DNA from: an uncultured Chloroflexia bacterium
GTDB taxonomy: Bacteria > Chloroflexota > Limnocylindria > QHBO01
Direction: 5' to 3'
DNA: 64,000 bases
Assembly (NCBI GenBank): GCA_963825905.1
Contig: CAWGUL010000008.1
Span: 12,944 to 76,943, forward strand
Shown: positions 36,306 through 61,733 of the stretch, in pieces
Layout of the letters: each line of letters opens with the position of its first letter
How positions within the stretch are numbered: the stretch's first letter is position 1
Notes under the pieces: model-generated
What the model saw: only the letters and a program-made list of their open reading frames with translations
What the model was told of the DNA's origin: nothing
Database searches by the model: none
Translations under genes and position numbers: made by a program

Positions 36306-36327
36306 TCCGGCTCAGTATAGGCGTTGC

Positions 36328-36566: not shown

Positions 36567-36572
36567 GCACCG

Positions 36573-40604: not shown

Positions 40605-41924
40605 CTAGGCCCGCGCGGCCGCCGCCGGACGGTCGCCGGCATCCTCGTCGGGAGCCGTCGCGCGGCGGCGGGCGGCGGCCCGTTCCTGTGCCGGCACCCG
40701 GACGCCGAGCTGCCACGCGACGAGGAGGACGAAGAAGCTCGAGAACAGCGCTCCGAGCAGGAAGCCGGCGGGCGCGCCCCACAGCTCGGCCACCGCACCG
40801 GCGAAGAAGCCACCGATCGGTGCGCTGCCGGCGAAGACCATGACGTACAGGCTCATCACCCGGCCGCGCAGCTCGTTGCTGACCGTGTTCTGGATCATGA
40901 CGTTGATCGTGTTGACCATCAGCATCGAGGCGAAGCCGAGGAACAGGATCACGACGTAGGCCGGGATCGGGGTGCGGATCAGGCCGAACAGCACCTCGAG
41001 CACGACGAAGCCGGTGCCGCCGAGGATGATGAGCCGCAGCATGGGCCGCCGCGAGCCCATGAAGGCAAGCGTCAGCGACCCGGCGAGCGAGCCGACGCCC
41101 ATGGCGGCGAAGAGGGCGCCGTAACCATCCGCCTCGAGGCCGAGCGTGTTCTTCGCATAGAGCGGCAGCAGGGTCTGGAAGTTCATGGCGAATGTCGCCA
41201 TCCCGCCGAGCAGGACGAGCGGCCACAGGACGTTGGGCGTGCGCAGCGCGTAGCGCATTCCCTCGGTGAGGCTGGACCGAACCGAGGCGAACCGCTCCGG
41301 TCGCACCGCCCGGTGGAGCGCCGACGGCACGATCATCCACAGGCCGACGAGCACCGCGAGGAAGCTCAGCGCGTTGAGGCCGAAGTTGAAGGCCGGCCCC
41401 CACAGCGCGAGCGTCACGCCCGCGACGGCCGGGCCGACGACGCGGGCGGCGTTGAACGAGGCCGAGTTGAGGGCGATGGCGTTGATCAGGTCCTTCGGCG
41501 GCACGAGCTCGGCGGCGAAGGCCTGGCGAACGGGCATGTCGACGGCGCTGATGAGGCCGCGGAAGACGGCGAGCGCCATGATCAGCGGGATCGTGATGTT
41601 CCCGCTTAGGGTCAGGCTGAAGAGAATGCCGGCCTCGATCATCGCGCCGATCTGGGTGGCGATGAGCGCTTTGCGCTTGTCGACCCGGTCCGCCAGCACC
41701 CCGCCGAGCGGCGCCAGCACGGTTGCCGGCGCGAACTGCAGGGCGAGCACGATGCCGAGCTGGAGCGGCGACCCGCCCAGCAGCAGGACAAGCCACGGCA
41801 GGCTGACCGACTGCATCCAGGTCCCGACCAGGCTGATGACCTGGCCGATGAAGTAGAGCCGGTAGTTGCGATGGCTCATCGCGGCAAAGCCGCGCCGGAA
41901 TCCCCCGCCCGGGGCGGCCGGCAT
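40605..41924 (-). CDS. MFS transporter (MFS_3 / EntS-like family)
   Basis: HRNYRLYFIGQVISLVGTWMQSVSLPWLVL.., ..GGVLADRVDKRK... Start uncertain (ATG at 41924, 41879 or 42011). Confidence 0.8.
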   Translation of the reverse strand: MPAAPGGGFRRGFAAMSHRNYRLYFIGQVISLVGTWMQSVSLPWLVLLLGGSPLQLGIVLALQFAPATVLAPLGGVLADRVDKRKALIATQIGAMIEAGILFSLTLSGNITIPLIMALAVFRGLISAVDMPVRQAFAAELVPPKDLINAIALNSASFNAARVVGPAVAGVTLALWGPAFNFGLNALSFLAVLVGLWMIVPSALHRAVRPERFASVRSSLTEGMRYALRTPNVLWPLVLLGGMATFAMNFQTLLPLYAKNTLGLEADGYGALFAAMGVGSLAGSLTLAFMGSRRPMLRLIILGGTGFVVLEVLFGLIRTPIPAYVVILFLGFASMLMVNTINVMIQNTVSNELRGRVMSLYVMVFAGSAPIGGFFAGAVAELWGAPAGFLLGALFSSFFVLLVAWQLGVRVPAQERAAARRRATAPDEDAGDRPAAAARA

Positions 41925-42002
41925 CGGGGCGCCCTCGTCCTGTCGGCCGATGACGCGCAGCGGCGGCCGCGCAGCGGCGAGGAGGCGACGAGGCAGCGTG
42001 GC

Positions 42003-42017
42003 GAGGGTCATCGTTAG
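42003..42017. promoter_or_regulatory. Perfect 15-bp palindrome GTTAGC-AAC-GCTAAC in the MFS / serine-hydrolase divergent region
   Basis: gttagcaacgctaac in a locally AT-richer stretch (tcgttagcaacgctaacaaaagttcac). Confidence 0.4.
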
Positions 42018-42101
42018 CAACGCTAACAAAAGTTCACGGAGTTGCCAAGCCCCCGGCCCTTGCCGCGGCACGGCTCGGTCGGCGAGAATCCGACTCGTCC
42101 C

Positions 42102-43314: not shown

Positions 43315-44997
43315 TCAGCTCGACCCGAACAGGATCTCGCGGATGACCGGCAGTGACGGGGTGCCGTGGTTGATGACCGACTCGAGGAATGGTCGGTAGG
43401 CGAACTCCCGGCCCTCCCCATCGGCGCGCCGTCGCTCCTCGGCCTCGAGGTCGTGCATCCCCACGCTGCCGAGGAAGTACTCGCACAGCTGCGTGCTCGA
43501 CAGGCGTGCGCGCGACCACTTCTCGGTCGCCTCGGAGCGCTCCTGCCAGCCGCCGTCGACCATGAGGCGCATCGCGTCCTCCTCGTCCATCGATCCGGCG
43601 TGGATGCCGATGTCCATCATCGTGTTCGTGATCGCGCGCAGATAGAACTTCCAGTGGACGAGCATGAGGGCCGGGTCATCGGCGCCGTAGCCGACGTCCA
43701 TCATGACCTGGGTCACGTACACCGCCCAGCCCTCGGCGAACACGCCGGACTGGAAGATGGCGCGCACGAGCGAATCAGTCCGATTCGAGTACGCGAGCTG
43801 GAGATAGTGGCCCGGCACCGCCTCGTGGATCGTGAGCAGCCGCAGCTGGCGGGCGTTGTCCTCGCGCAGCATCGACTCGACCTGCTCATCGGTCCAGGCG
43901 TCGGGCGGTGGCGTGATCGCGAAGAAGCTGTCGAGGCCCTTGTCGAGCGGCCCGGGCGGGATGAGCATGGCGCCGCCGAAGGCACGCAGGAACGGCGGGG
44001 TCCAGATGATCTGCATCGGCTCATCCGCCAGGCCGATGAGGTCGCGCTCGCGGATGAAGGCCTCGATGCGCGCGTTCTCGGCGCGGCAGAAGTCGAGCAG
44101 CTCCCCGGCCAGCGGATGGTCGGCGCTGATCGCGTCGAGCACGCGGCGCACGAGCTGCGTCTCGTCCGACGGCATCGGCTCGTCGCGCACCCAGTCCGGC
44201 CAGAGCTGGCGCGCCAGGCGGACCATCTCGCCCCGCACCTGCGCGAAGGCGACGGTCGCGCGCTGCTCGAGGTCCTCGGGCGTGACGTCAGTCTTCAGGG
44301 CGTGCCGGAACTTCTGCGCGTACAGCTCCGACCCGAGCCGGAAGTCGCCCGTCGCGCGCGGCGCCAGGTCGTCACGCAGCCAGTCGCGGAACGCCTCGAC
44401 CGCGCGCGCCGCCTCCTCGGCAGCCGCCTCGAGGTCGGAGCGGAGGCCGGCATCGTCGAGCTGCTGCGCCTCGGCGGCCGCGCTGCGGGCCAGGTCCGCC
44501 ACGCCACCGATGGTGGCGATCGCCTTCTCGGTGTGGAAGGCGCTCACCGGGCGCGGTCCGCCGGCCCGGAGCGTCGCCCTCGCGGCCTCCAGGGCGGCAG
44601 GCAGGGCGCGCAGCCGCGATGCGGCGCTGGCGAGGCGGACCGGCAGCGGGGCGAACTCGCGCGACAGGAGGCTGAAGAGACCGCCCCCGAAGAGATAGAC
44701 GTAGCTGATCGGGCTCCAGGTCGCTTCCCGCAGCACCTCCTCACCAAAGCGGGCGGCGGCGAGGTGCTCGAGGACGATGCGCCGGTCGATCTCCTCGTCG
44801 CGGCCGAGGTCGCCCGGTTCCAGGGCGGCAACCTTCGCCTCCGCGTCACGCAGGAAGGCGACGCGTGCCTCGTGGCCGGCCGGCGTGAGATCCGGCCATG
44901 CGCCGTCGTGCTCGTGGTTCCCAAGCTCGGTGGCGGTGACGGGGTCGTGCCGGAACCAGCCGGCGAGGAAGTCATCGACGATGGGCTGCAACAACAT
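43315..44997 (-). CDS. DUF885 family protein
   Basis: From ATG at 44997: IVDDFLAGWFRHDPVTATELG.., HEAVPGHYLQLAYS, AEGWAVYVTQVM. Confidence 0.8.
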   Translation of the reverse strand: MLLQPIVDDFLAGWFRHDPVTATELGNHEHDGAWPDLTPAGHEARVAFLRDAEAKVAALEPGDLGRDEEIDRRIVLEHLAAARFGEEVLREATWSPISYVYLFGGGLFSLLSREFAPLPVRLASAASRLRALPAALEAARATLRAGGPRPVSAFHTEKAIATIGGVADLARSAAAEAQQLDDAGLRSDLEAAAEEAARAVEAFRDWLRDDLAPRATGDFRLGSELYAQKFRHALKTDVTPEDLEQRATVAFAQVRGEMVRLARQLWPDWVRDEPMPSDETQLVRRVLDAISADHPLAGELLDFCRAENARIEAFIRERDLIGLADEPMQIIWTPPFLRAFGGAMLIPPGPLDKGLDSFFAITPPPDAWTDEQVESMLREDNARQLRLLTIHEAVPGHYLQLAYSNRTDSLVRAIFQSGVFAEGWAVYVTQVMMDVGYGADDPALMLVHWKFYLRAITNTMMDIGIHAGSMDEEDAMRLMVDGGWQERSEATEKWSRARLSSTQLCEYFLGSVGMHDLEAEERRRADGEGREFAYRPFLESVINHGTPSLPVIREILFGSS

Positions 44998-45038
44998 GGC
45001 GGCGATGGTAGCGGAGCCGGACGGCGCGGTTCGGGGCG

Positions 45039-45647
45039 GTGCTACGGTCAGCCGCGATGGGTGCACGCGATCGACGGACGGCAGCGACACGCGAGCGGAT
45101 CGTGACGGTGGCCGCCCAGCTCTTCGGCGAGCGTGGCGTGGAAGCGACCACGATGGATGCCGTCGCCCGTGCCGCGGGCCTGAGCCGGACGAGCGTGTTC
45201 AACTACTTCCCGTACAAGGAGGCGATCCTCGTCGAGATCGGCGCCGGCTTCGTGACCGAGATCGGCGCCATGGCCGGCCGGCATCAGCGCCGTACCCCGC
45301 GCCAGGCGCTCTACGACCTGGCCGACGCGATCGCCGTCCTCACCACCCGGCAGCCGGGTCTCATCGCCGCGGTCGCGCGCGAGATGCTCCACCCGGATCC
45401 CGCTCGACGCCGCCACGCGCTCGTCCGCATGCGCTACCCGACCCTCATCGAGGCGATCCTGGGCGAGCTGGTGGCCACCGATCGGCTCCGGCACCCGCGC
45501 CGGATCGCGGCGCACGTTCGACAGCTCGTCGACCTCACTGGCGGCACCGTCCTGCGCGCCGGCGGAGACTTCCCGCTGACGCAGCTGCGGGCCGAGCTGC
45601 GCGCCAACGTCGACCTCTTTTGCGAGGGTGCGCTCGTCGAGCGCTGA
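45039..45647 (+). CDS. TetR-family transcriptional regulator
   Basis: TRERIVTVAAQLFGERGVEATTMDAVARAAGLSRTSVFNYFPYKEAIL. Possible start at ATG 45057. Confidence 0.85.
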   Translation: MLRSAAMGARDRRTAATRERIVTVAAQLFGERGVEATTMDAVARAAGLSRTSVFNYFPYKEAILVEIGAGFVTEIGAMAGRHQRRTPRQALYDLADAIAVLTTRQPGLIAAVAREMLHPDPARRRHALVRMRYPTLIEAILGELVATDRLRHPRRIAAHVRQLVDLTGGTVLRAGGDFPLTQLRAELRANVDLFCEGALVER

Positions 45648-45673
45648 CGGCGGGCGCCTATCATCGGCCCACC

Positions 45674-46399
45674 ATGACCGAGAACCTGAGCGCCACCGAT
45701 GCCTACGCCCGGGCCTGCCGGGCGCGCGTCCTCGCGACCGATGGCGCCGCGGTGCTGGTCGATCGCACGGTCGTCTATCCGGGCGGAGGCGGCCAGCCCG
45801 CCGACCATGCCTGGCTCAGGGCGCCCGACGGCAACCGCTGGGCGGTGACATCGGTCCGCAAGGACGGGTCGAAGCTGTGGCACGAGCTCGAGCATGCCGA
45901 GGCCGGTATGCCGGCGGTCGGCGACGAGGTGGAGATCGAGCTCGACTGGGAGCGCCGGCATCGGCTCATGCGGACGCACTCCGCGCTGCACGTCCTGTGC
46001 GGCGTCGTGTGGCGCGACCATGCCGCGCTCGTCACCGGTGGGAACATGGAGCCACTGGTCGGACGCATGGACTTCGAGTTCGAGACGATGTCGGGCGACC
46101 TGGTGGGCCAGATCGAGGCCCGGGTCAACGAGGAGATCGCCGCCGATCGCGAGATCCGGGTGGCGATGCTGCCGCGCGACGAGGCGTTCGCCATCCCCGA
46201 CCTCATCCGGACGAAGATCAACCTCCTGCCGCCTGGGATCGAGACGGTCCGCACGATCGAGATCGTGGGGCTCGACCTCCAGGCCGACGGTGGCACCCAC
46301 GTGGCGCGCACCGCCGAGATCGGGCACGTGCGCGTCACCGGCTACGAGAGCAAGGGCAGGATCAACAAGCGGATCCGGATCGCCGTCGAGGACGCCTGA
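45674..46399 (+). CDS. Alanyl-tRNA editing protein, AlaX-M-like (threonyl/alanyl-tRNA synthetase second additional domain)
   Basis: From ATG at 45674: VVYPGGGGQPAD, RTHSALHVLCG (HxxxH), ADGGTHVARTAEIG (the usual CxxxH Cys is Asp here), KGRINKRIRI. Confidence 0.75.
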   Translation: MTENLSATDAYARACRARVLATDGAAVLVDRTVVYPGGGGQPADHAWLRAPDGNRWAVTSVRKDGSKLWHELEHAEAGMPAVGDEVEIELDWERRHRLMRTHSALHVLCGVVWRDHAALVTGGNMEPLVGRMDFEFETMSGDLVGQIEARVNEEIAADREIRVAMLPRDEAFAIPDLIRTKINLLPPGIETVRTIEIVGLDLQADGGTHVARTAEIGHVRVTGYESKGRINKRIRIAVEDA

Positions 46400-47191: not shown

Positions 47192-47695
47192 GTGACGTCC
47201 GACAACCGCGGCACCGAGGGATCCGAGCCTGCGGCCACGCCCGCACTGGCCGATCCGCGGCTGCGCGGCGTGCGGCACCAGGTCGTGCGCACCGACGTTG
47301 CCGGCAGCCCGGAGGAGAGCGCCGCGCTCCAGGGCATCCCGCTGGGCGCGTTGCTGCGCACGATCGTGGTGCGGCGCGGCGAGGACGACTACGTGTTCGT
47401 GCTCGTGCCGGGCGGTCGGCGCTTCGAGTGGCCGAAGCTGCGCAGCCTGCTCGGGGTCCGGCGCCTCTCCCTGCCCGATGCCGACGAGGCGCGCGCCGCG
47501 ACGGGGTACGAGCGCGGCGCGATCACGCCGTTCGGCTCAGCTCGGCCGTGGCCGGTGATCGTCGACGCGGCGGCACTCGAGCACCTGCGCGTCGCGATCG
47601 GCGGCGGTATGCGTGGCGTGAATCTTCACCTCGCGCCGCAGGATCTCGCGGCCGCCACCGCGGCGCAGGTCGCGGACGTCACCAGCCCCGGCTGA
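47192..47695 (+). CDS. YbaK/EbsC-type aminoacyl-tRNA editing (deacylase) domain protein
   Basis: From GTG at 47192: LLRTIVVRRGEDDYVFVLVPGGRRFEWPKLRSLLGVRRLSLPDADEARAATGYERGAITPFG. Confidence 0.7.
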   Translation: MTSDNRGTEGSEPAATPALADPRLRGVRHQVVRTDVAGSPEESAALQGIPLGALLRTIVVRRGEDDYVFVLVPGGRRFEWPKLRSLLGVRRLSLPDADEARAATGYERGAITPFGSARPWPVIVDAAALEHLRVAIGGGMRGVNLHLAPQDLAAATAAQVADVTSPG

Positions 47696-47698
47696 GAT

Positions 47699-48517
47699 CT
47701 ACGGGCGCAACGTTCCGGACCAGACCTGCCATGCCAGCAGCGTCTTGGCGATGAGGCTCAGCAGCATGTACGTCCGCTCGCCGTACAGGTAGTCGCGCCA
47801 TCGGCCCACCTTGCGGAACTGCAGGACCATGTTGAACGCGAACACGTTGAAGCTGAGGAAGAGGCTGACGTAGATCGCGATCACGAACCCGGGAATGGGC
47901 GCCGCGTTCGGCGACGTGATGCCGGTGATGAGCGCGACACCGATGACCACCCAGGGCACCGCGCCGGCAATGCAGCCGAAGAGGTAGTGCACCCACTGTG
48001 GCCGATCGCGCCCCTCATTGGCGGCCTCCATGCTCCACCCGAAGAGGTTCATCGCCGCGTTCGTGCCGACGATGGCGATCAGCGTGCCGACCTCGCGCAC
48101 GCCGGTGAGCATGGCGATGACGACGATCATCACGCTGGAGCTGAACGCGTACTCGATCCAGCGCGCCGGATTCATGCGGCGCGCGAGGTTGCGCTCGTAC
48201 CAGCCACGCGCCGGCCAGGCGACGACGGCGTGCGCGACGGCGCTCATCGCGAAGAACGACGCGACCAAGGGACCGATGGGAACATCGAACAGGGCGCGCT
48301 GCGCCGGGATGAGCGTCGAGGTCGCCGGGTCGAAGGTGAGGTAGCTCGAGACGACCGGCGCGGTCGCCATCGGGCTCTGCGTGAGCGAGAGGGCCAGCAT
48401 CGCAAGGAACTGGACGCCGTGAAGGAACGCGAGCGCCACGTTCCAGCGGTGCAGCGAGGTGGAGCGATCGGCCGGGATCGGCCGCGCCGTCGCAACCGTC
48501 GCGCCGAGGGCGGTCAT
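47699..48517 (-). CDS. Heliorhodopsin (7-TM retinal-binding photoreceptor)
   Basis: 272 aa. Collinear by eye with heliorhodopsin 48C12: NPARWIEYAFSSSVMIVVIAML, FGCIAGAVPWV, YLYGERTYMLLSLIAKTLLAWQVWSGTL. Schiff-base Lys258 (codon 47744-47746), counterion-position Glu122, and conserved His33/His96. Confidence 0.9.
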   Translation of the reverse strand: MTALGATVATARPIPADRSTSLHRWNVALAFLHGVQFLAMLALSLTQSPMATAPVVSSYLTFDPATSTLIPAQRALFDVPIGPLVASFFAMSAVAHAVVAWPARGWYERNLARRMNPARWIEYAFSSSVMIVVIAMLTGVREVGTLIAIVGTNAAMNLFGWSMEAANEGRDRPQWVHYLFGCIAGAVPWVVIGVALITGITSPNAAPIPGFVIAIYVSLFLSFNVFAFNMVLQFRKVGRWRDYLYGERTYMLLSLIAKTLLAWQVWSGTLRP

Positions 48518-49980
48518 CGGGCCGCCTCCCCGGCGCGCGTGGGGGCGGCAGGGGACGAGGCACTGGTCGGGCTCGCGTCGAAGGCGAGGCGGCCGGGTGC
48601 GGAGGCGGGATCGAGGTAGCTCGCCAGCCCCTCGTCAAACGGGGTCAGGCGGCGCGGGAGCCGCTCGAGCAGCGGGGCGGTATCGACGGTCGCCGGCTGA
48701 TTGATGAAGTCGACCGCGTCCGGCGTGAGGAGCGGCGACGGCAGCAGGCTGAGGGGCAGCGCGGCAAGCTTCACGAGGGGTGCAGGTGCCGGGATGATGG
48801 GCCGCCGGACCCCCGAAGCCCGGAGCGCATGCCCGATGACCTCGCGCATCGTGAGCGTGTCGGGACCGCCGACCTCGAGCACCGCGTTGCTCGCCGCCGG
48901 ATCCTCGAGGCTGTCCGCGACGAGGCGGCCGATGTCGTCCACGAAGACCGGTGCCAACAGCTGGCCGCCGAAGTTCGTCATCGGCACGAACTGGAGCTGC
49001 CGCGCGAAGCCGAGGAACCGGTTGAGCGACACGTCGCGCGGCCCGTAGATCCAGGTCGGGCGCAGGATCGTCCAGTCGATCCCCGAGCCGCGAACCGCCT
49101 CCTCGGCCCGCCACTTGGCGCGGAACCAGTGGCGCGCGGCATCAGGAGCCGCACCGGCGCCGGAGAGATAGACGAGCTTCCGCACACCCGCCGCGCGCGC
49201 GGCGGCGACGAGGTGCTCGGTCCCGGCGGCGTCGACCGCCATGAAGGTCTGACCGCGGCGGGGCGCCTCGATCGGCGAGTTCTTGAATGCCAGTGCGATC
49301 ACGAGCGCATCCACTCCCGCCAACCCGGGCTCGAGACCATCGCTCCCCGTCACATCGGCGTGCCGCACCTCGACCGCGTCGGGCAGCGGGCCACGCCCGG
49401 CGTCGCCCTGGCGCGAGAGGATGACCACCCGGTGGCCACGGGCGTGGAGCTCGGCGGCGATGGCACCGCCCACGAATCCGCTGCCGCCGGCGACGGCCAC
49501 CGTCATCGGTGCATCAGCGTGCCCCGCCTGGGCGAAGACGGCGCGAACGGCACGCGCGCGGTACCGGAAGATCTGCTCGAGCTGCGGCCGGACCACGAGC
49601 CGATGCGCCAGCTCCCCGAGCAGGCCCAACGGGAGCGCGTACGTCACCTCGTCGACGATCCGCGTGCGCTCGCCCTCGGCGAAGAAGGTGTGGCGATGGT
49701 CCCAGCGACGGTAGGGCCCCCGCAGCTGCACGTCGCGGAAGCTGTGCGGCGGGTCGTACTCGGCGATGAGGCTGCGCCACGTCGTCGGGATGCCGAGCAG
49801 CGGCCGAACCCGGTACTCGACCTCCAGCCCTTCGCGCATCGCCAGGTCCCCGGAGCGGAGCTCGAAGCCCATCGCCGGCGGCGTGATGCGGCCGAGGTTC
49901 TCCGGCCGCGAGAAGAAGGCGAAGACCTCGTCGATCGGTCGATCGACCTCGAGGCTCGCGCGGAGGCGATGCATCGTCAT
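48514..49980 (-). CDS. Fusion protein: N-terminal SRPBCC/START-like ligand-binding domain plus an atypical NAD(P)-binding short-chain dehydrogenase (NDUFA9/NmrA-like)
   Basis: SRPBCC: LEVDRPIDEVFAFFSRPENL..FRDVQLRGPYRRWDHRHTF. SDR: VAVAGGSGFVGGAIAAELHARGHRVVILSR, ILRPTWIYGP. Its stop overlaps the heliorhodopsin ATG (ATGA at 48514-48517). Confidence 0.8.
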   Translation of the reverse strand: MTMHRLRASLEVDRPIDEVFAFFSRPENLGRITPPAMGFELRSGDLAMREGLEVEYRVRPLLGIPTTWRSLIAEYDPPHSFRDVQLRGPYRRWDHRHTFFAEGERTRIVDEVTYALPLGLLGELAHRLVVRPQLEQIFRYRARAVRAVFAQAGHADAPMTVAVAGGSGFVGGAIAAELHARGHRVVILSRQGDAGRGPLPDAVEVRHADVTGSDGLEPGLAGVDALVIALAFKNSPIEAPRRGQTFMAVDAAGTEHLVAAARAAGVRKLVYLSGAGAAPDAARHWFRAKWRAEEAVRGSGIDWTILRPTWIYGPRDVSLNRFLGFARQLQFVPMTNFGGQLLAPVFVDDIGRLVADSLEDPAASNAVLEVGGPDTLTMREVIGHALRASGVRRPIIPAPAPLVKLAALPLSLLPSPLLTPDAVDFINQPATVDTAPLLERLPRRLTPFDEGLASYLDPASAPGRLAFDASPTSASSPAAPTRAGEAAR

Positions 49981-50080
49981 GGTGTGGTAGCTCCCGCGTT
50001 CGGGTCCGCGCTGCGAGGCGAACGCCGTGTAGATGGTTTGTTCACTGTCTTGGTGTCAGAATAGCCGGCATCGGGAGGTC

Positions 50081-50109
50081 TTGTCAAGCATCTGTCGAGG
50101 GTTTACGCT
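50081..50109 (+). promoter_or_regulatory. Candidate promoter of the carH-like gene (-35 TTGTCA, 17-nt spacer, -10 TACGCT), overlapped by 11-nt-phased TGTC repeats; implies a near-leaderless mRNA
   Basis: ttgtca at 50081-50086 and tacgct at 50104-50109, with the ATG at 50119. ttgtcaag (50081) and ctgtcgag (50092) are 11 nt apart. Confidence 0.35.
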
Positions 50110-50118
50110 AGACGAAGC

Positions 50119-51030
50119 ATGTACACGATCAGCGCAGCCGCCGCACGCGCCGGCATCTCGGTTCCCCTCGCCAGGGCGTGGGAGCGACGGTATGGCGTCG
50201 TCAGCCCAACCCGCACGGCGGCCGGCTATCGCATCTACGACGATGCCGCCGTCGCACGTCTGTCGGCCATGCGGGAGCTCATCGCGCGGGGCTGGGCGGC
50301 GGGCGCGGCGGCGACCTCGCTGCGCGAGATGGATGACGACGCGGTTCGCGCCCTCGCGACCAACCCGATCCCGGCCGGCAGCGCCGGCCCGAGCCTCGAG
50401 CCCGGCGAACGGCTCGTGGCCGCGTTCGTTCGGGCCGCGACGGCGCTGGATGCGAGCGCCATCGAGGACGTGCTCGACGACGCGTTCGCGCGCGGTTCGT
50501 TCGAATGGGTGAGCGAGCGATTCCTGCTGCCGATGATGGTCGCCGTCGGCGACGCCTGGCAGTCCGGCCGCCTCCACGTCGCTGGGGAGCACCTCGCCAG
50601 CCACTCCGTCCAGCGCCGACTCGCGACGGCCTTCGAGGCGGCGGGTCGGACGCCGGCGCACGCTCGTCCCGTGCTCGTCGGCCTGCCGCCCGGCAGCCGG
50701 CACGAGCTCGGGGCGCTGGGATTCGCCACGGGTGCGCGGCGCGCCGGCATGGATGTCACCTACCTCGGTCCTGACCTGCCGATCGAGGACTGGCGCGCTG
50801 CCGCTCGGACGGCCGATGCGCGGGCCGCGGTCATCGGCGTGGCGACCGATCGCGATGCGGCTCCGGCCGCCGCGCTGGCCGCCGCCCTCCGCGCCGACCG
50901 ACCCGCAATGCTCGTGGCGGTCGGCGGTCCGGCGGCGAGCCAGGCGGCGTCGGACGGCGTGCTGGAGCTCGCCGACGGGATCGGGTCCGCGGTCGACGTC
51001 GTGCGTCGCGCCCTCGACGCCACCGGCTGA
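50119..51030 (+). CDS. CarH/LitR-type regulator: MerR-family HTH fused to a cobalamin-binding photoreceptor module
   Basis: MerR HTH YTISAAAARAGISVPLARAWERRYGVVSPTRTAAGYRIY. W-x9-EH motif AWQSGRLHVAGEH. B12 lower-ligand His motif VLVGLPPGSRHELGALGF..YLGPDLP. Confidence 0.85.
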   Translation: MYTISAAAARAGISVPLARAWERRYGVVSPTRTAAGYRIYDDAAVARLSAMRELIARGWAAGAAATSLREMDDDAVRALATNPIPAGSAGPSLEPGERLVAAFVRAATALDASAIEDVLDDAFARGSFEWVSERFLLPMMVAVGDAWQSGRLHVAGEHLASHSVQRRLATAFEAAGRTPAHARPVLVGLPPGSRHELGALGFATGARRAGMDVTYLGPDLPIEDWRAAARTADARAAVIGVATDRDAAPAAALAAALRADRPAMLVAVGGPAASQAASDGVLELADGIGSAVDVVRRALDATG

Positions 51031-51042
51031 CCGAAGCCGGGT

Positions 51043-51504
51043 CTAGCCGGCGGCGAGCTCATCGAGGCGTCGCCGCATGCCGTCGAGCGGCCCGCCGCCG
51101 CCGCGGAGGCGGCCGATGAGCGCCATGATCGGCATCCCGAGCCATAGCAGCCGTCCCACCCCGTGGAGGTTGACCTCCGCCTCGTAGCGAATCGTGCTGC
51201 CGCCATCGGTGCCGGGCTCGACGCTGATCTCGTCCCAGCCATCGAAGCGGGTGCCGGACGACCCGAGCAGGCGCACCCGCCGCGGCGGTTCGAGCGCCTC
51301 GATGACGTAGTCGAGACCGATGCGTACCCGACCCGGTCCGCGCGCGTCGAGTCGATAGCGGCTCCCCACATGCGGCGGGCCGGGATCGAGGCGTTCGGCA
51401 CGCCGGATGAACGGATCCCACTCCTCGATCGTGGCGAAATCGGAGAGGTACGCGAACGCGCGGTCCGGCGCGAGCCGGGTGGGAAACGAGGTGCCGAGGC
51501 GCAT
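51043..51504 (-). CDS. SRPBCC-superfamily (polyketide cyclase/dehydrase-like) protein
   Basis: From the internal ATG at 51504: FPTRLAPDRAFAYLSDFATIEEWDP..YRLDARGPGRVRIGLDYVIEALEPPRRVRL... ATG at 51534 or 51546 is also possible. Confidence 0.65.
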   Translation of the reverse strand: MRLGTSFPTRLAPDRAFAYLSDFATIEEWDPFIRRAERLDPGPPHVGSRYRLDARGPGRVRIGLDYVIEALEPPRRVRLLGSSGTRFDGWDEISVEPGTDGGSTIRYEAEVNLHGVGRLLWLGMPIMALIGRLRGGGGPLDGMRRRLDELAAG

Positions 51505-51544
51505 GCCCGCCGATGCTACGTGGATCGGTGCCATAGTGCTCGCC

Positions 51545-52219
51545 ATGGCCGAGCTCCACGTCCTCCGCGTATTCGTCGACGAGTCGGGCGCGCACGGCAA
51601 CCCGCTCGGCGTGTTCCTCGACGGAGCGGCCATTCCGCCGGACCGGCGCGCCGAGGTGGCGGCGCGGCTCGGCTTCTCCGAGACCGTGTTCGTCGACAAC
51701 GCCGCGAGCGGCGAGGTCCGGGTCTTCACGCCGGGCCGCGAGCTCGCCTTCGCCGGTCACCCGCTCGTCGGGACCGCCTGGCTGCTCGCGTCCCACGGGC
51801 TCGAGGTCCCGACGCTCCGGCCGCCGGCGGGCGAGGTGCCGACCTGGGAGGCGGATGGGTTGCGCTGGATCCGCGGCCGCGCCGCGTGGGTGCACGAGAT
51901 CGATCTCGAGCAGCTGCCCGATGGCGCGGCGGTCGACCGCCGTTTCGGTGCGCCGCCCGGCGTCGAATCGCTCTATGTCTGGGCCTGGGAGGACGAGGCG
52001 GCCGGCCGCGTCCGGAGTCGCTACTTCGCCCCGGGGCTCGGCATCGCGGAGGATGAGGCAACCGGGGCCGCGGCCGTCGTCCTCACCGATCGGCTCGGTC
52101 GAGCGGTCGGCATCCGCCAGGGTCGCGGCTCACGTCTCAGCGCCCGGCCCGGACCCGATGGCACGGTCGAGGTGGGCGGTCGCGCGGTGCTCGACGAGGT
52201 GCGCGACTTCACTCTCTGA
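51545..52219 (+). CDS. PhzF-family (phenazine biosynthesis-like) isomerase
   Basis: From ATG at 51545: LHVLRVFVDESGAHGNPLGVFLDG, GFSETVFV, FAGHPLVGTAW, EDEATGAAA. Confidence 0.75.
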   Translation: MAELHVLRVFVDESGAHGNPLGVFLDGAAIPPDRRAEVAARLGFSETVFVDNAASGEVRVFTPGRELAFAGHPLVGTAWLLASHGLEVPTLRPPAGEVPTWEADGLRWIRGRAAWVHEIDLEQLPDGAAVDRRFGAPPGVESLYVWAWEDEAAGRVRSRYFAPGLGIAEDEATGAAAVVLTDRLGRAVGIRQGRGSRLSARPGPDGTVEVGGRAVLDEVRDFTL

Positions 52220-52249: not shown

Positions 52250-53884
52250 CTATGCCTTCGCCAGCGCCGCCCGCTCGGCAAGCGCGATCGGCAGCGTGCC
52301 TGCCCCCGCGATCGCGTCGTGGAAGTCGCGCAGCGTGTCGACGTCGCCCGCGGTCGCGCCGCGCCGGGCGAAGAACGCATCCCGGATCCGCGCGATCTCC
52401 AGCGCGCCGGTGAGGTACGAGCTCGCCTGCGTCGGCCACGAGCAGTAGCGGGTCACCTCGGCGATCGCGGTCGGCTCGGTGAGCGAGGAGTGGGCGAGCA
52501 TGTACGCCACCGCCTCGGCATGTCCCATCTCGCCCATGTGGAGCGCGGTGTCGACCACGATCCGGGCGGCCCGGAAGAGGCGCGCCTCGACCTGGTAGAA
52601 GACATGGCGCAGGTCGTCGTAGAAGGCGGCGTTCGTCATCATCTCCTCCGCGTAGAGCGCCCAGCCCTCCGCGAAGTAGCTCGTGCCGAACTCGGCGCGC
52701 ATCGGCGACGGATTCGTCTTCGCCATCGCCAGGTGCCAGTGGTGGCCGGGGTATGCCTCGTGGACCGCGGTGGTCGGGATGCCCGGGTACGAGTTCGACT
52801 CGAGCCGCTTGCCGATCTCCTCCTCCGAGGCCCCGTCCGGCGGGAATGGCACGAAGAAGTGGCCACGGAATGTCGCCGCGTAGTGCGGCGGGGCCACGTA
52901 GCTGGCGACCGCGATCACCGGCCGCTGGAACGGCGGCGACGGAACGACAAGGCACTCCTCGCCGGCCGGGAACGAGACGAGCCGCCGGTCGTGGAGGAAC
53001 TGGCGCGCGCGCTCGGTCCACTCCTCGTAGCCGACCCGCATCGCCTCTGGATCGGCGGGCCGATCGACATTGAGCTCGCCGATGAGCTTCTTCCAGTCGT
53101 CGTGGCCCGCGATCTCGCCGGAGAGGCGCCGCATCTCGCCGAGCAGGAGCTCCACCTGGTCCAGACCGCGCTGGTGCAGGCCGCGGGTGTCGAGGTCGAG
53201 CTGCTCGGCGTCGCGCAGGACGGCGGTGTAGTTCTCCTCGCCGAACGCCCACTCGCCGGTCGCGGCGGGACGCATCTCCTCCAGGAAGGCGGCGTAGGCC
53301 TCGAACGCATCGGCCGCGGCCGCACCCGCCGCCGCCAGGTCGGCGCGATGCTCCTCCGCAACGTCCGCGGGCAGGAGGTCGCGCACGTAGCGCGCACCGG
53401 CGCGTGCCTGGTTGATGGCGCGCTCCAGGATGACGAGCGGCACCATCTCGGGCCGCAGGTTGGCGCGGCCGGCCTCGAGGTTGGCCGGCACGAGGCGCAG
53501 GCGCGCGGCCGCCGCGGCAGCCAGCTCGCCCTCCGGGCGCAGGCGGTGAAGGAAGAGGACGAAGACGCCCCGCATCCCGGGGTTGAGGTAGAGATCGGGC
53601 TGGCGGCGCCAGATCTCCCATGCGTGGTAGATCGCCCGCTCACGAAGCTGGCTGACGGCGAGGTCGCGGTCGATCGCCTCGTCGAAGGTCAGCTCGTCAT
53701 CGGCCAGGCCGGAGAACCGCTCGAGCCATGCCGCCGAGCGGGCGGCATCGGCCTCGATCGCCTCGGCGGACATGTCGTCGAGCTGGTCGTCATAGTCGGT
53801 GAGGCCCAGGTACGAGGCACGAACCGGGTTGGTGGCGTGCTCCTCCTCGAGGAACTGGACGGCAAGGTCAGCGAAGGACGGCAC
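52250..53884 (-). CDS. DUF885 family protein (second paralogue)
   Basis: 544 aa. FLEEEHATNPVRASYLG, HEAYPGHHWHLAMA, AEGWALYAEEMM. GTG start. Confidence 0.8.
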   Translation of the reverse strand: MPSFADLAVQFLEEEHATNPVRASYLGLTDYDDQLDDMSAEAIEADAARSAAWLERFSGLADDELTFDEAIDRDLAVSQLRERAIYHAWEIWRRQPDLYLNPGMRGVFVLFLHRLRPEGELAAAAAARLRLVPANLEAGRANLRPEMVPLVILERAINQARAGARYVRDLLPADVAEEHRADLAAAGAAAADAFEAYAAFLEEMRPAATGEWAFGEENYTAVLRDAEQLDLDTRGLHQRGLDQVELLLGEMRRLSGEIAGHDDWKKLIGELNVDRPADPEAMRVGYEEWTERARQFLHDRRLVSFPAGEECLVVPSPPFQRPVIAVASYVAPPHYAATFRGHFFVPFPPDGASEEEIGKRLESNSYPGIPTTAVHEAYPGHHWHLAMAKTNPSPMRAEFGTSYFAEGWALYAEEMMTNAAFYDDLRHVFYQVEARLFRAARIVVDTALHMGEMGHAEAVAYMLAHSSLTEPTAIAEVTRYCSWPTQASSYLTGALEIARIRDAFFARRGATAGDVDTLRDFHDAIAGAGTLPIALAERAALAKA

Positions 53885-57980: not shown

Positions 57981-58742
57981 CTACGGGAAGAGATCCATGG
58001 CACGGTCCATGACGAGGTCGGCCGCGCGACCGTCACCCGCCTCGTGGTCCCAGCCGCGGACGACGACGACCGGGAGCTGCGCGACCTTGCCACCGGCAAG
58101 ATCCGCGGCCGACGCGAGCTGGTCCGCCACGGCGGTGATCGTGGCATGCATGACGCGCCCGGCAGCGTCCGGCCGGCCGCGCAGGTCGAGCAGGGGCGCG
58201 AGCCCGGCGCTGCCGATCGCGACGTTGACGATCCCGTTGCGCCACGGTCGGCCGAACGAGTCGCTCACCACGACCGCCGGCGTGACCCCGAGCCGCGCCT
58301 GCAGGCCGTCGCGAATCGCTGCCGCCGACGCATCCGGGTCGACCGGGAGCAGCGTGGCCGCGTCGCCGACCCCGACGTTCGAGAGGTCGACGCCGGCGTT
58401 CGCGCAGACGAGGCCGTGCCGGGTGCGGCTGATGATCAGCCCGTTCGGCCCGATTCGGACGATCTCCGCCGACTCACGCAGCACGAGCTCCACCTGGCGC
58501 GGGTCCTTGTCCCAGCGGGCGCCGAATTCCGAGGCCCACGGCCGGGGCTCCACCGTAGCAAGGTCGACCATTCGCCCCTCCGCCTTGCTGACGATCTTCT
58601 GCGTCACGACGAGGATGTCGTCCTCGCGCAGACCGATGCCGGCGGCCTCGGCCGCCCCGACGATGAGATCCGCGAGGTCATCGCCGGCCGCGACCTCCGG
58701 GATCCCGGGCAGCGCGATGAGCTCGAGCGAGCCCGCCGTCAT
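57981..58742 (-). CDS. cofE: Coenzyme F420-0:L-glutamate ligase (stand-alone CofE, no nitroreductase-like C-terminal domain)
   Basis: From ATG at 58742 (ATGA overlap with the cofC stop): ALPGIPEVAAGDDLADLI..DILVVTQKIVSKAEGR..ANAGVDLSN..DSFGRPWR. Confidence 0.85.
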   Translation of the reverse strand: MTAGSLELIALPGIPEVAAGDDLADLIVGAAEAAGIGLREDDILVVTQKIVSKAEGRMVDLATVEPRPWASEFGARWDKDPRQVELVLRESAEIVRIGPNGLIISRTRHGLVCANAGVDLSNVGVGDAATLLPVDPDASAAAIRDGLQARLGVTPAVVVSDSFGRPWRNGIVNVAIGSAGLAPLLDLRGRPDAAGRVMHATITAVADQLASAADLAGGKVAQLPVVVVRGWDHEAGDGRAADLVMDRAMDLFP

Positions 58743-59341
58743 GCGGCGTCCCCGAGCTCGATCCAGCGTGCGAGGTCGGCGGGCGTGTCGAGGTCGAAGG
58801 CGAGGCCCGGCCGCTCGAGGATCGCAACCTGGACACCGGCCGCTTCGGCCGCGGCGCAATGGGCGGCGAAGCTTGCCTCGCCGAAGGCGAAGTCGATGGC
58901 GTCGGCGGGGCGCAGCGCGAGGGCGTTCGTCCCGCTGCCGCCGCGGTCCGGCGCGATCGTCAGGCCGGAGGGCGAGGGCGTGGCGGCGAGGAGCGCCCGG
59001 ACGTCGTCCGGGCCGAGGTTCGGCAGGTCACCGTGGAGGACGCCGAGCAGGCCGATCCCCGCCTCGACGGCCGCCCGGCGCGCCTGCTCGAGGCCGGTAT
59101 TGAGGCCCATGCCGCGCTGGACGACGAGCGTGGCGCCGATCGGCTCGACGATCGCGATGAGCGCCTCGGACGGGGTGATCACCACGACGTCGTCGGCCGC
59201 CTCGCGGACGACGCGCAGCACCCGCTCCAGCAGCTCACGCGCGAGCGCCACCCGCTCCCCGGGATCGAGCACCGGGGCGAGGCGCGTCTTCGCGGCGGCG
59301 AGGCCGCGGTGCGGGACGATGATGCGGATCGGCTCGCTCAC
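58739..59341 (-). CDS. cofC: 2-phospho-L-lactate (or PEP) guanylyltransferase
   Basis: 200 aa. IIVPHRGLAAAKTRLAPVL..VVVITP..GLNTGLEQA..HGDLPNL. Confidence 0.8.
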   Translation of the reverse strand: MSEPIRIIVPHRGLAAAKTRLAPVLDPGERVALARELLERVLRVVREAADDVVVITPSEALIAIVEPIGATLVVQRGMGLNTGLEQARRAAVEAGIGLLGVLHGDLPNLGPDDVRALLAATPSPSGLTIAPDRGGSGTNALALRPADAIDFAFGEASFAAHCAAAEAAGVQVAILERPGLAFDLDTPADLARWIELGDAA

Positions 59342-60273
59342 GGGTCGAGCATACCGCCGCCCTCGATGAGGGCCCGGGCGAGGGTCGCCCGGTCCGCGTC
59401 GCTGCGCATGACGGTGGGCAGCACCCGCGGCGTCATCCCGAGGGCCGCGATCTCCGGTGCAAGGGCCGCATCCGCGCCGTCCAATACGAACGATTCCACG
59501 ATCCCGGCGTATCGGCGCGCCACGCCAACGGCGCTCACGTCCTCGCCCAGCGAGGCGAGCATCCGGTCGGCAGGGCCCCTGAGGGCGCGGCCGGCGATGA
59601 TCGGGCTGACCGCCACCGCCCGAGCGGCGGCGACCGCGTCGCGCAGCTCCGCGACGGCGAGGATGGGACCGATGCTGACAACCGGGTTCGACGGTCCGAT
59701 GACCACGAGATCGGCGTCGCGGATCGCCGCCCCGGCCGCGGCGCTCGCTCGGGCGGATGCCTCGCCATCCAGGCGCACGCCGGTCACCGCCGGCTCCTGG
59801 CGACGCGCCACGAAGTAGTCCTGGAAGTCGAGCTCACCGGCATCGGTCTGGATCATCGTCCGCAGCCGGTCGTCGCTGGCCGGGAGCACATGAGCCGTGA
59901 TCCGGAGCGCGCCGGCCATGGCGGCGGTGGCATCGGTCAGCGAGGCTCCTGCACTGAGGAGCTCCGTACGCCGCACATGCGTGGCAAGGTCCGCGTCGCC
60001 GATCTGGAACCAGGTGCGATCGGCCCCGAGGCGCTCGAGCATGGCAAGCGCCGTATGCGTGTCACCCGCCACGCCCCAACCGGTCTCGCGGTTCAGCAGC
60101 CCGGCAAGGGTGTAGAGGACGCTGTCGATGTCGGGGCTGACGTGGAGGCCGTGGAGCTCGGTGTCGTCGCCGACGTTGACGACGACCGAAAGCTCGCCGG
60201 CGGCGAGGACCTGGGCGAAGCCGTGGGCGAGCTTCGCGCCGCCCGTGCCGCCGGCGAGGAGCGCAACCTTCAC
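59338..60273 (-). CDS. cofD: 2-phospho-L-lactate transferase
   Basis: From GTG at 60273 (GTGA overlap with the upstream stop): VALLAGGTGGAKLAHG..NVGDDTELHGLHVSPDIDSVLYTLAG..IGPSNPVVSIGPIL. Confidence 0.85.
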   Translation of the reverse strand: MKVALLAGGTGGAKLAHGFAQVLAAGELSVVVNVGDDTELHGLHVSPDIDSVLYTLAGLLNRETGWGVAGDTHTALAMLERLGADRTWFQIGDADLATHVRRTELLSAGASLTDATAAMAGALRITAHVLPASDDRLRTMIQTDAGELDFQDYFVARRQEPAVTGVRLDGEASARASAAAGAAIRDADLVVIGPSNPVVSIGPILAVAELRDAVAAARAVAVSPIIAGRALRGPADRMLASLGEDVSAVGVARRYAGIVESFVLDGADAALAPEIAALGMTPRVLPTVMRSDADRATLARALIEGGGMLDP

Positions 60274-61226
60274 GAGCCCGCCAGCATCGGCCGCACCTCG
60301 GTCGCGAGGCGCTCGAGCGACTCGGCGTCGTGCGGCGCCGGGAAGCCGACGATGAGGTGCCGGAACCCGATCCCCAGGTATGGCCGCAGCTGCTCGGCGA
60401 CCTGCTCCGGCGTCCCAGCGAGCTGGTTGGGCCACGGCCGGGCACCGCCGTTGCCCCGGAACGTGGCCGCCACCACGCGCCGCGCCTCGGCGGGATCGTC
60501 CCGGATGACGCAGACCCCAACGCCGGCGGTCCGCTCGATCTCCGACTCGTCGCGGCCGATCTCGTCGCAGTGGCGGCGCAGCACCTCGTCCTTGTGCCGC
60601 ACGTTCTCGAAGCCGCCGCCGAAATTACAGGCGTCGGCGTAGCGCGCGACGGTGCGCAGCGTTCGCCGCTCCCCGCCGCCGCCGATGAGGAGCGGCAGGT
60701 GCGATTGGACGGGGGGCGGGTCGTTGCGCACCTCGCGAGTGGCGTAGTAGCGCTCGCCGGAGGGTCGCTCGCCGTGGAGCATGCCGCGCATGATCCGCGC
60801 CGCCTCGTCGAGCCAGCGTAGCCGCTCCCCTGGCGAGCCGCCGAACTCGATCCCGAACGCGGTGTGCTCCGTCTCGAACCATGCGCCGCCGATGCCGAGG
60901 ATCGCGCGGCCGCCGGAGATGTGGTCGAGCGTCGTCGCCATCTTCGCCACCAGCGCCGGGTTGCGGAACGTGTTCGCGCCGACCATGAGGCCCAGCCGGG
61001 CGTGCGTCGTGGCCTCGGCCCACGCGGCGAGGGAGAGCCACGCCTCGAACATCGGTCCCTCGTGGTCGCCGACGATCGGGTACAGATGGTCCCAGGTCCA
61101 CACGTCGTCGTAGCCGAGCTCATCGGCGCGGATGGCCGCGGCGCGGAAGGCGGGCCAGGTCGTGTACTGGTTCCAGAACAGGACGCCGAGCCGGACGTCG
61201 GTGGTGGCGCCGCCGGCCTCAGTCAT
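60270..61226 (-). CDS. LLM-class (luciferase-like) F420-dependent oxidoreductase
   Basis: 318 aa. DDVWTWDHL, NTFRNPALVAKMATTLDHISGGRAILGIGGAW. Confidence 0.8.
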   Translation of the reverse strand: MTEAGGATTDVRLGVLFWNQYTTWPAFRAAAIRADELGYDDVWTWDHLYPIVGDHEGPMFEAWLSLAAWAEATTHARLGLMVGANTFRNPALVAKMATTLDHISGGRAILGIGGAWFETEHTAFGIEFGGSPGERLRWLDEAARIMRGMLHGERPSGERYYATREVRNDPPPVQSHLPLLIGGGGERRTLRTVARYADACNFGGGFENVRHKDEVLRRHCDEIGRDESEIERTAGVGVCVIRDDPAEARRVVAATFRGNGGARPWPNQLAGTPEQVAEQLRPYLGIGFRHLIVGFPAPHDAESLERLATEVRPMLAGS

Positions 61227-61644
61227 GCCGGATGACCTTCTCGACGCGGAGCTCGATCGTCACCCGGTGCTGGCCCTCGAACGTCCGCGGATCATCCTCG
61301 TAGCGCCGCGCGAGCTCCTGGATCACCGACAGGCCGCGGACCGGGTCGTCGTCGAGCTCGACGCGACCCTCGACGGTGACATAGTCGTTGCCGTCCTCGA
61401 AGCAGAGGCTGACCCGCGGGTCGCGGAGCATGTGCTTGTGCTTCAGCCGGCCAGCGCGGGTGTTCATGATGATCACGTCGTCCCGTCGCGGGTCCAGGTC
61501 GAACCAGACCACGGACTGGCTCGGCATGCCGTCGCTGCGGATGGTCGCCATCACGGGGAAGCGCGGCTCGGTGAGGAGCCAGTCACGGGTCGCGGGGTCG
61601 AGGGCGCTCGCGTGCTTGATCGTCTCTGCCAATCGGGTCTCCAT
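61219..61644 (-). CDS. PPOX-class (pyridoxamine 5'-phosphate oxidase-like) probable F420-dependent enzyme
   Basis: From ATG at 61644: FPVMATIRSDGMPSQSVVWFDLD..DDVIIMNTRAGRLKHKHMLRDPRVSLCF. Confidence 0.75.
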   Translation of the reverse strand: METRLAETIKHASALDPATRDWLLTEPRFPVMATIRSDGMPSQSVVWFDLDPRRDDVIIMNTRAGRLKHKHMLRDPRVSLCFEDGNDYVTVEGRVELDDDPVRGLSVIQELARRYEDDPRTFEGQHRVTIELRVEKVIRHD

Positions 61645-61733
61645 GCGTCGATGTGCTCTGTTTTTCGGAGCGACCATCGTATCCCGATGCGGCTGGCGGG
61701 ACCCACGGCAGGCACGGCCCGTAGACTGCGTCG

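Follow-up and report, generated by a model that had tools for sequence, protein, structure and literature searches.

What heliorhodopsins do in the cell has been an open question since 2018, and to our knowledge just three partner-specific functions of these proteins have been reported so far. A locus of an uncultured Chloroflexota bacterium from soil/freshwater raises the question of which signal controls a heliorhodopsin gene, and which proteins are made together with its product. The locus lies in a 64,000-nucleotide stretch of DNA (contig CAWGUL010000008.1, positions 12,944 to 76,943; the whole stretch is referred to as the window). Here, a heliorhodopsin gene (HeR, 47699..48517, minus strand) follows the gene of a 488-amino acid (aa) fusion protein (FUS, 48514..49980, minus strand), and a gene encoding a CarH/LitR-type regulator (carH, 50119..51030, plus strand) is divergent to both, separated by a control region of 138 bp as defined by the open reading frame (ORF) boundaries (49981..50118). 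An earlier note made from the sequence of the window had proposed these three ORFs, all of which exist exactly as it gave them, and had interpreted them as an operon gated by light through the B12-dependent regulator. Our analysis leads to a reading that we consider fairly probable: the three genes form a divergent CarH/LitR-type unit derepressed by light, and HeR belongs to a light (photo-oxidative-stress) regulon.

The 272-aa HeR product covered the whole Pfam model PF18761 (E = 2.4e-91, 305.8 bits versus a cut-off of 26.7) and the whole NCBIfam heliorhodopsin equivalog NF038020 (311 bits, cut-off 100), in agreement with the original assignment. Alignment to the solved structures of TaHeR and 48C12 (6is6/6su3) placed the Schiff-base lysine of transmembrane helix (TM) 7 at K258 (codon 47744-47746; K238 in TaHeR, K241 in 48C12), the counterion glutamate of TM3 at E122 (48152-48154; E108 and E107, respectively), and the conserved histidines of TM1 and TM2 at H33 (48419-48421) and H96 (H23 and H80 in 48C12). 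The lysine, the glutamate, and both histidines had been named in the earlier note, and its three peptide comparisons with 48C12 all agree with the 48C12 sequence. The stop codon of FUS and the start codon of HeR overlap in ATGA at 48514-48517 (...GCC CGA TGA / ATG ACC...), as had also been noticed, and a Shine-Dalgarno-like GGGGAGG element (48525..48531, minus strand) is located inside the FUS 3' end, 8-14 nt upstream of the HeR ATG. Judged from the ATGA overlap and the internal Shine-Dalgarno element, FUS and HeR are almost certainly co-transcribed and translationally coupled.

The 303-aa product of carH was assigned using Pfam, NCBIfam, and an alignment to Thermus CarH. It consists of a MerR helix-turn-helix (HTH) domain (residues 2-65, MerR_1 45.8 bits), a B12-binding_2 four-helix bundle (residues 101-169), and a Rossmann B12-binding domain (residues 189-279) with a marginal score of 34.9 bits versus a cut-off of 32.1; both this architecture and the divergent orientation across 138 nt are as predicted earlier. 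The best solved relative is CarH from Thermus thermophilus (5c8d, E = 1.5e-30), and 22 of 58 residues of its DNA-binding domain, including WERRYG, are identical in the HTH of the regulator. The Wx9EH motif of CarH proteins caps the upper-axial adenosyl group. In the regulator, W147 (50557-59), E157, and H158 (50590-92) align to W131/E141/H142 of Thermus CarH, and H195 (50701-03) aligns to the lower-axial His H177, so that both CarH signatures listed in the earlier note have their counterparts in 5c8d. These signature residues are conserved in 44 of 45 regulator homologues.

The double half-site TGTNNANNNNNTGTNNA (TGTnnA-N5-TGTnnA) occurs in exactly two copies in the 64 kb, where 0.07 would be expected, and both are intergenic exact matches in the control region. 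Site 1 (TGTAGAtggttTGTTCA, 50028..50044, plus strand), with its two TGTnnA half-sites 11 bp apart, lies in the predicted 5' untranslated region (5'UTR) of FUS-HeR. Site 2 (TGTCAAgcatcTGTCGA, 50082..50098, plus strand) is situated over the -35 elements of both divergent promoters. Read on the opposite strand, the half-site TGTnnA becomes TnnACA, which forms the core of the repeat in published CarH operators; these consist of tandem 11-bp direct repeats nAnnTnnACAn overlapping the sigma-A promoter (PMC8156234). Allowing one mismatch gave merely chance-level extra matches, except for a possible third site (TGTACAtgcttCGTCTA, 50109..50125, minus strand) over the carH start codon, which is matched exactly at the same position in ~20 related loci. 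The ATG-TAC-A (Met-Tyr-Thr) at the carH start itself reads TGTACA, and the conserved coding of M-Y-T partly explains the third site; it may serve autoregulation or simply follow from the conservation of the N-terminus.

The predicted sigma-70-type promoter of FUS-HeR (50058..50087, minus strand), supported by a promoter scan and by related loci, comprises a -35 element TTGACA (50087-50082), an 18-nt spacer, and a -10 element TATTCT (50063-50058), and is the sole promoter-like match in 47400-51900 (0.1 expected). On the opposite strand, its -35 TTGACA gives the first half-site of site 2, and the pattern TTGACA-16/18-TAnnnT is conserved among relatives. The putative carH promoter (50081..50109, plus strand), which we read from the sequence, has a -35 element TTGTCA (50081-50086), a 17-nt spacer, and a -10 element TACGCT (50104-50109). 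This -10 element is only 9 nt ahead of the ATG, suggesting that the carH transcript is leaderless or nearly so; a TAnnnT element 9-11 nt ahead of the carH start is conserved in ~35 loci. Transcription would be expected to begin near 50051 (minus strand) for FUS-HeR and near 50116 (plus strand) for carH.

The conservation of the arrangement was followed in 80 HeR loci from species-representative genomes, with neighbour counts based on the 53 loci with at least 3.5 kb on each side of HeR, and in 80 metagenomic loci encoding FUS relatives. Neighbouring genes were assigned by clustering all high-GC3 ORFs and by Pfam searches with cluster representatives; for the window (GC content ~72%), independent gene calls of the source contig were also used. 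The nearest proteins and loci all derive from the Candidatus Limnocylindria group of uncultured Chloroflexota. The sequence is present identically in an independently assembled ENA metagenome contig (ERZ25039564:contig_13204), and together with the recurrence of the layout in related genomes this argues against a chance arrangement of the three genes.

Two main types of HeR neighbourhood were observed. In type A (~10 loci, with an order like that of the window), the genes are arranged as [classical short-chain dehydrogenase/reductase (SDR)] carH(-) | [DUF378, fasciclin] FUS(+) HeR(+), often followed by a convergent glutamine synthetase gene. In type B (~21 loci), genes for a cyclopropane-fatty-acid (CFA)-synthase-like methyltransferase(-), an amine-oxidase-type FAD oxidoreductase(-), and an SRPBCC protein(-) precede HeR(+), a classical SDR gene(+), and carH(-), which is divergent from an MFS transporter gene(+); the remaining loci have neither carH nor FUS near HeR. 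A carH gene was found within 4.5 kb of HeR in 26 of the 53 loci, the motif within 3.5 kb in 30, an adjoining gene similar to that of a stand-alone SRPBCC protein of the window (SRPBCC2) in 21, and an adjoining FUS gene in six. In 1.05 Mb of HeR loci, the motif was counted 72 times, compared with 1-5 times in shuffled sequences, and nearly all copies are intergenic and next to HeR or carH. Types A and B form separate clades in a neighbour-joining tree of heliorhodopsins, which means that HeR and carH did not become linked by one inherited accident; nor is the link confined to this genome.

Related loci also contain homologues of site 1, and the distance between sites 1 and 2, 54 bp in the window, is 53-54 bp in several of them. 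The intergenic DNA between the SRPBCC gene and HeR in type-B loci has the same two-site design with 53-54-bp spacing directly upstream of HeR, an element that would drive HeR itself. In a footprint alignment of 18 type-B loci, the conserved blocks are site 1, the leftward -10 element (TA...T), site 2 (conserved as GTCAAg..gt.tGt), and the HeR ribosome-binding site. The half-sites within promoter spacers are as conserved in this alignment as those coinciding with promoter hexamers, which argues for an operator rather than promoter sequence alone. Five loci (L019, L021, L064, L076, L078) lack a carH within reach and still have the double half-site at most 120 nt upstream of HeR, which suggests control in trans by a regulator encoded elsewhere.

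Further genes accompany HeR in the relatives. The stand-alone SRPBCC2 of the window (153 aa, 51043..51504, minus strand; Polyketide_cyc2 51 bits, independent gene call) is convergent with carH; in type-B loci, its homologue is divergent from HeR and controlled by the operator. An operator was looked for upstream of SRPBCC2/PhzF in the window and none was found; as SRPBCC2 has no motif upstream, its membership of the regulon in the window is uncertain. In loci L098, L100, L101, L116, L121, L128, and L004-L016, the DNA between carH and FUS, right behind the operator, encodes a DUF378 membrane protein of 76 aa and a secreted protein with a fasciclin domain; both look like further regulon members, and the window has neither gene. 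Many type-A relatives have a convergent gene of the glutamine synthetase family (Gln-synt_C, E = 6e-94) directly downstream of HeR or FUS; it lies ~0.8-2.3 kb beyond HeR in L004, L005, L007, L009, L013, L015, and L016, and is also present in L088, L091, L095, L098, and L100. Coupling of heliorhodopsins with glutamine synthetase is known from Actinobacteria. The window has a YbaK-like gene at this position.

A different picture emerged from the loci selected for full-length FUS genes. A divergent carH was found within 1.3 kb of FUS in 16 of the 26 loci with sufficient upstream DNA. The strict motif occurred within 1.3 kb upstream in 21 of 41; 34 of 38 motif matches fell inside these upstream zones, a 63-fold enrichment. 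With sufficient downstream DNA, HeR followed FUS in only two of 22 loci. These counts suggest that regulator, operator, and FUS are the conserved unit and that HeR, found with FUS in ~10% of loci, is an addition in a subset. The idea of FUS as a dedicated partner of HeR, put forward in the earlier note, is at variance with them, FUS being a regulon member in its own right. HeR and FUS are adjacent in three configurations: with overlapping codons in the order FUS-HeR, with a 16-nt gap in the order HeR-FUS (L059), and as fasciclin-HeR-FUS (L097, with a HeR only 55% identical to that of the window). Such repeated adjacency hints at a functional tie in addition to their shared regulation.

We propose the following course of events for the locus. 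In the dark, the regulator loaded with adenosylcobalamin (AdoCbl) would bind the 11-bp-spaced TGTnnA half-sites at sites 1 and 2, and possibly also the site over its own start codon. Bound at site 2, it would cover the -35 elements of the carH and FUS-HeR promoters, and with site 1 in the 5'UTR also occupied, both transcripts would be repressed. Light from the UV to the green would photolyse the cofactor, the oligomer would leave the DNA, and more regulator, FUS, and HeR would be formed. With repression lifted by photolysis, HeR would be made only when there is light to sense. FUS would be a core member of this regulon and may or may not contact HeR; in relatives, the regulon would further include the stand-alone SRPBCC protein, the classical SDR, a UfaD-like FAD oxidoreductase, the CFA-synthase-like methyltransferase, and the DUF378 and fasciclin proteins. 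Of the light-gated operon proposed in the earlier note, the conserved CarH-like operator over both promoters and the recurrent synteny support the regulatory part in silico, and the response to light is still predicted.

Several observations weigh against this proposal. The half-sites match the published CarH consensus in the TnnACA core only and are laid out as 2+2 instead of 3-4 tandem repeats. Some of the motif conservation may reflect promoter function, as the half-site TGTCAA and the -35 hexamer TTGACA are reverse complements and one site lies over conserved coding sequence. The regulator reached only 132.8 bits with the NCBIfam CarH equivalog (cut-off 400), and is accordingly a family relative rather than an equivalog of the modelled CarH. 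The canonical B12 motif E/DxHxxG...SxL...GG is degenerate in its clade: the regulator reads SRHELG, with A, S, or G at position -2 across the clade and Gly for Ser, the GG being kept; the position of Thermus His132 is occupied by Gln. Neither carH nor the motif was present in ~40% of the well-flanked HeR loci, and a FUS-HeR pair (L088) likewise has neither nearby. Finally, we infer B12 binding, DNA binding, and light induction alike.

The competing explanations differ in the function assigned to FUS, in the signal sensed, and in whether the genes are co-regulated at all. The first was in part suggested by the earlier note: FUS might be an oxidoreductase of retinal/retinol (or of a carotenoid-derived compound) that supplies or recycles the chromophore, or a dedicated HeR signalling partner, in an obligate three-gene module. 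The translational coupling of FUS and HeR and their adjacency in three configurations would fit, as would an SRPBCC pocket able to hold a hydrophobic ligand, and heliorhodopsins are known to regulate products of neighbouring genes. As had been recognized earlier, FUS combines an SRPBCC domain with an atypical NAD(P)-binding SDR domain, and Pfam profiles detected both. The SRPBCC/helix-grip hydrophobic-ligand domain (residues 3-148, 49537..49974, minus strand) gave a marginal Polyketide_cyc2 match (29.5 bits versus a cut-off of 27.4) and is modelled as an antiparallel beta-sheet with a long C-terminal helix (119-148, pLDDT >90). Residues 158-466 (48583..49509, minus strand) match NAD_binding_10/Epimerase/NmrA (NAD_binding_10 83 bits) and have an intact glycine-rich NAD(P) motif (GGSGFVGG from residue 165, with Gly invariant in the alignment). 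The best sequence relatives of this half are an alphaproteobacterial complex I accessory subunit (9g83_P, E = 4.6e-27) and mitochondrial NDUFA9. An AlphaFold2 model of FUS calculated from a 27-sequence alignment (pLDDT 84, pTM 0.84) retrieved NDUFA9 subunits almost exclusively in Foldseek (E = 1e-19 to 1e-22, target-normalised TM 0.72-0.81).

The YxxxK motif of FUS reads W285-F-R-A-K289, with W285 (49126-49128) in place of the catalytic Tyr and K289 kept. Both residues are invariant in 89 of 89 FUS homologues and in every row of the 27-sequence alignment; part of the metagenomic FUS set had been fetched by a pattern containing the W285 peptide, the loci derived from HeR had not. FUS is therefore probably not a canonical dehydrogenase, and the Trp together with the NDUFA9-like rather than retinol-dehydrogenase-like fold makes a role in retinal or retinol conversion, as considered in the earlier note, unlikely. 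It is best described as an NDUFA9-like protein that binds NAD(P)H, has a pocket for a hydrophobic ligand, and is probably peripheral to the membrane. Moreover, the neighbourhood counts (HeR downstream in two of 22 FUS loci, FUS adjoining in six of 53 HeR loci) imply that most FUS proteins work without an adjacent HeR, and 31 related stand-alone SDR genes have no HeR nearby. We thus regard a chromophore enzyme or obligate partner as unlikely and retain FUS as a member of a CarH/LitR-type regulon.

The 31 stand-alone genes are of interest for the history of the family. These metagenomic loci (L129-L131, L133, L135-L157, L159, L160) match FUS only from residues ~117-228 on, mostly over 158-458, with 59-74% identity, and keep the Trp in place of Tyr in all cases; a few are cut by the contig end. 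SDR genes devoid of the SRPBCC part on complete contigs point to a domain-fusion or domain-fission event within one family. FUS is not simply the stand-alone SRPBCC neighbour joined to the classical SDR found in type-B loci: its N-terminus has no detectable kinship to SRPBCC2 (BLASTP E = 7.3), and the SDR families differ (adh_short for the type-B SDR, NAD_binding_10 for FUS).

The second alternative concerns the signal. The regulator might be CarA-like, B12-independent, or non-photosensory, or might sense B12 availability or redox state, so that a signal other than light acting on AdoCbl would control the locus. Its score below the NCBIfam CarH cut-off, the missing acidic residue and Ser of the canonical B12 motif, and the marginal Pfam B12-binding match are in line with this; furthermore, CarA of Myxococcus xanthus has a B12 motif and needs no B12 (PMC8156234), and in LitR classes II-V, light sensing is indirect or absent (PMC9758184). 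On the other hand, 44 of 45 homologues retain Wx9EH and the His ligand, both B12 subdomains are present as in the class I architecture, and the targets are a photoreceptor and, in relatives, typical light-regulon genes, for which reasons we judge a different signal to be rather improbable. The third alternative, co-location without co-regulation, in which the TGTnnA pattern would reflect back-to-back promoters only (TTGACA, TATAAT-like) and carH would regulate other targets or itself, can draw on the first half of site 2 being the reverse complement of a perfect -35 element and on the second half of site 1 in type-B loci reading TATAAT or TACAAT, but is very unlikely in view of the equal conservation of the other half-sites in spacers or upstream of the -35 where no promoter constraint exists, the 11-bp phasing and 53-54-bp spacing kept across gene orders, and a motif that tracks carH and its neighbours (72 matches versus 1-5 expected).

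Within the favoured light-derepressed unit, a more speculative and on balance doubtful extension is a feed-forward cascade of two photoreceptors in these monoderm Chloroflexota. The B12 photoreceptor would license HeR as an effector of a photo-oxidative-stress/membrane-lipid programme, and HeR, with its retinal, would provide a second light-dependent gate for co-regulated proteins peripheral to the membrane, with the SRPBCC/NDUFA9-like fusion, the stand-alone SRPBCC protein, and furan-fatty-acid-type lipid enzymes as candidates. If true, such a cascade would explain the long-elusive physiological role of heliorhodopsins.

None of the ~50 annotated genes of the window is a crt, blh, photolyase, or B12-synthesis gene, which bears out the absence of crt and blh reported in the earlier note, and a missing blh near HeR genes is the published norm. 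An Rfam scan of the window detected no cobalamin riboswitch or any other RNA family. Two free-standing tRNA-editing genes less than 2 kb apart are located just downstream of HeR (45620-46399 and ~47192-47695, both plus strand), one AlaX-like (tRNA_SAD/tRNA-synt_2c) and one YbaK-like (tRNA_edit), with a 205-aa protein showing a weak YtkA-like match encoded between them. The locus is flanked on either side by paralogous DUF885 genes (43315-45090 and 52250-53884, both minus strand; E ~1e-94 to 1e-96), and a DUF885 gene near carH was also observed in L012 and L002. An MFS_3 transporter gene (40605-42071, minus strand), 5.6 kb from HeR and without the motif, shares its Pfam family with the MFS gene found divergent from carH in type-B loci. 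Farther away, the window encodes an adenylate/guanylate cyclase fused to an AAA_16 ATPase that runs off the window start (2-1573, minus strand), a long isocitrate lyase (764 aa) divergent from a LysR regulator (35379-38867), and a probable F420-related cluster with a CofC-like guanylyltransferase, two luciferase-like monooxygenases, and a PNPOx-family protein (58739-62579).

Parts of this arrangement have precedents in surveys. Chazan et al. named cobalamin-binding proteins, photolyases, and families linked to oxidative stress as neighbours of HeR genes and suggested a common light regulation, and judged the listed neighbour families not to be HeR-specific. In the survey by Cho et al. (2024), MerR-family regulators and SDR oxidoreductases figure among the ten frequent HeR operon neighbours, and an 'SDR -4 helR' overlap is depicted. 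The CarH/LitR identity of the regulator, the operator, and the SRPBCC/NDUFA9-like fusion are in neither study; a literature search found no paper linking heliorhodopsin with LitR or CarH, and a 2025 preprint on HeR carotenoid antennae contains no gene-context analysis. The statement of the earlier note that the arrangement had not been described thus applies to these three elements and not to cobalamin-binding, MerR, and SDR neighbours as such.

CarH/LitR regulons are well established and already include non-carotenoid genes. What the locus adds is a predicted CarH-type light switch with a second photoreceptor as its cargo, which makes HeR physiology testable and does not amount to a new mechanism. 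A vague 'oxidative-stress neighbourhood' statistic is turned into the falsifiable prediction that HeR is light-induced via AdoCbl photolysis, within a membrane-protection programme. HeR genes of Limnocylindria stand behind CarH-type operator-like sites, alongside genes typical of bacterial light/singlet-oxygen regulons, and the locus is in this respect a testable lead on what heliorhodopsins are for. In addition, a widespread uncharacterised protein of CarH regulons is defined (SRPBCC plus NDUFA9-like, Trp for the catalytic Tyr), and the control region represents a compact natural promoter pair predicted to be derepressible by green/blue light.

Comparison with known systems places the individual components. 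The 39-kDa complex I subunit NDUFA9 and its homologue in 9g83 share the fold, the GxxGxxG Rossmann motif, and the C-terminal extension with residues 158-466 of FUS. FUS differs by its additional N-terminal SRPBCC domain, by Trp in place of the YxxxK Tyr, and by being encoded in a predicted light operon; its likeness to this complex I subunit is one of fold and sequence. The 'SulA-family' SRPBCC-SDR fusion from Corynebacterium glutamicum (3oh8) has the same two-domain composition, and Foldseek aligned it over 491 columns. It belongs to a different SDR subfamily (YfcH/SDR39U1-like), and the whole-chain rmsd of 15 Å with TM values of 0.43-0.45 indicates that the domain arrangement differs or that the fusion arose independently.

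Heliorhodopsins that regulate proteins encoded next to them are known from AbHeR and glutamine synthetase, TfHeR and a photolyase, and OcHeR and an ABC transporter. As in these cases, HeR of the window shares an operon with a soluble or peripheral protein; its neighbour is an NDUFA9-like fusion, known here as a gene neighbour only. Transcriptional control by a second photoreceptor, as proposed for this locus, is a point that the studies of AbHeR, TfHeR, and OcHeR did not address.

The regulon of the relatives mirrors, at the level of families, the singlet-oxygen-induced furan-fatty-acid genes of Rhodobacter. In Pseudomonas, LitR binds TGTACA half-sites at two sites, one over the -35 element and one between transcription start and ATG, i.e. 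in the 5'UTR, and the light-induced LitR cluster encodes an SDR, an FAD oxidoreductase, and the CFA-synthase-family protein UfaM (ufaM) (PMC9758184). This class II LitR (PplR1/PmlR) has the same two-site geometry as seen in the window, with TGTACA-type half-sites, and its cluster parallels the type-B gene set of a CFA-synthase-family methyltransferase (CMAS), an amine-oxidase-type FAD enzyme, and an SDR. Class II LitR has no Rossmann B12 domain and is controlled by a LOV protein, whereas the regulator studied here possesses the Rossmann B12 domain; the half-sites are spaced by N12 in class II and by N5 here, and the class II regulon contains no rhodopsin, whereas the regulon here would include HeR.

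With class I regulators (T. thermophilus CarH/LitR, Bacillus megaterium LitR, and M. xanthus CarH), the regulator shares the MerR HTH, the Wx9EH bundle, and the Rossmann B12 domain with its His, as well as a gene position divergent from the target operon. In the candidate operator of the window, TnnACA half-sites with 11-bp phasing lie over predicted promoter elements, which resembles the published CarH operators. The acidic residue, the Ser, and the Thermus His132 are not conserved here, and two half-site pairs 53-54 bp apart take the place of 3-4 tandem repeats. The targets differ most clearly in kind: carotenoid genes in the class I systems, and here a heliorhodopsin together with an SRPBCC/NDUFA9-like fusion protein.

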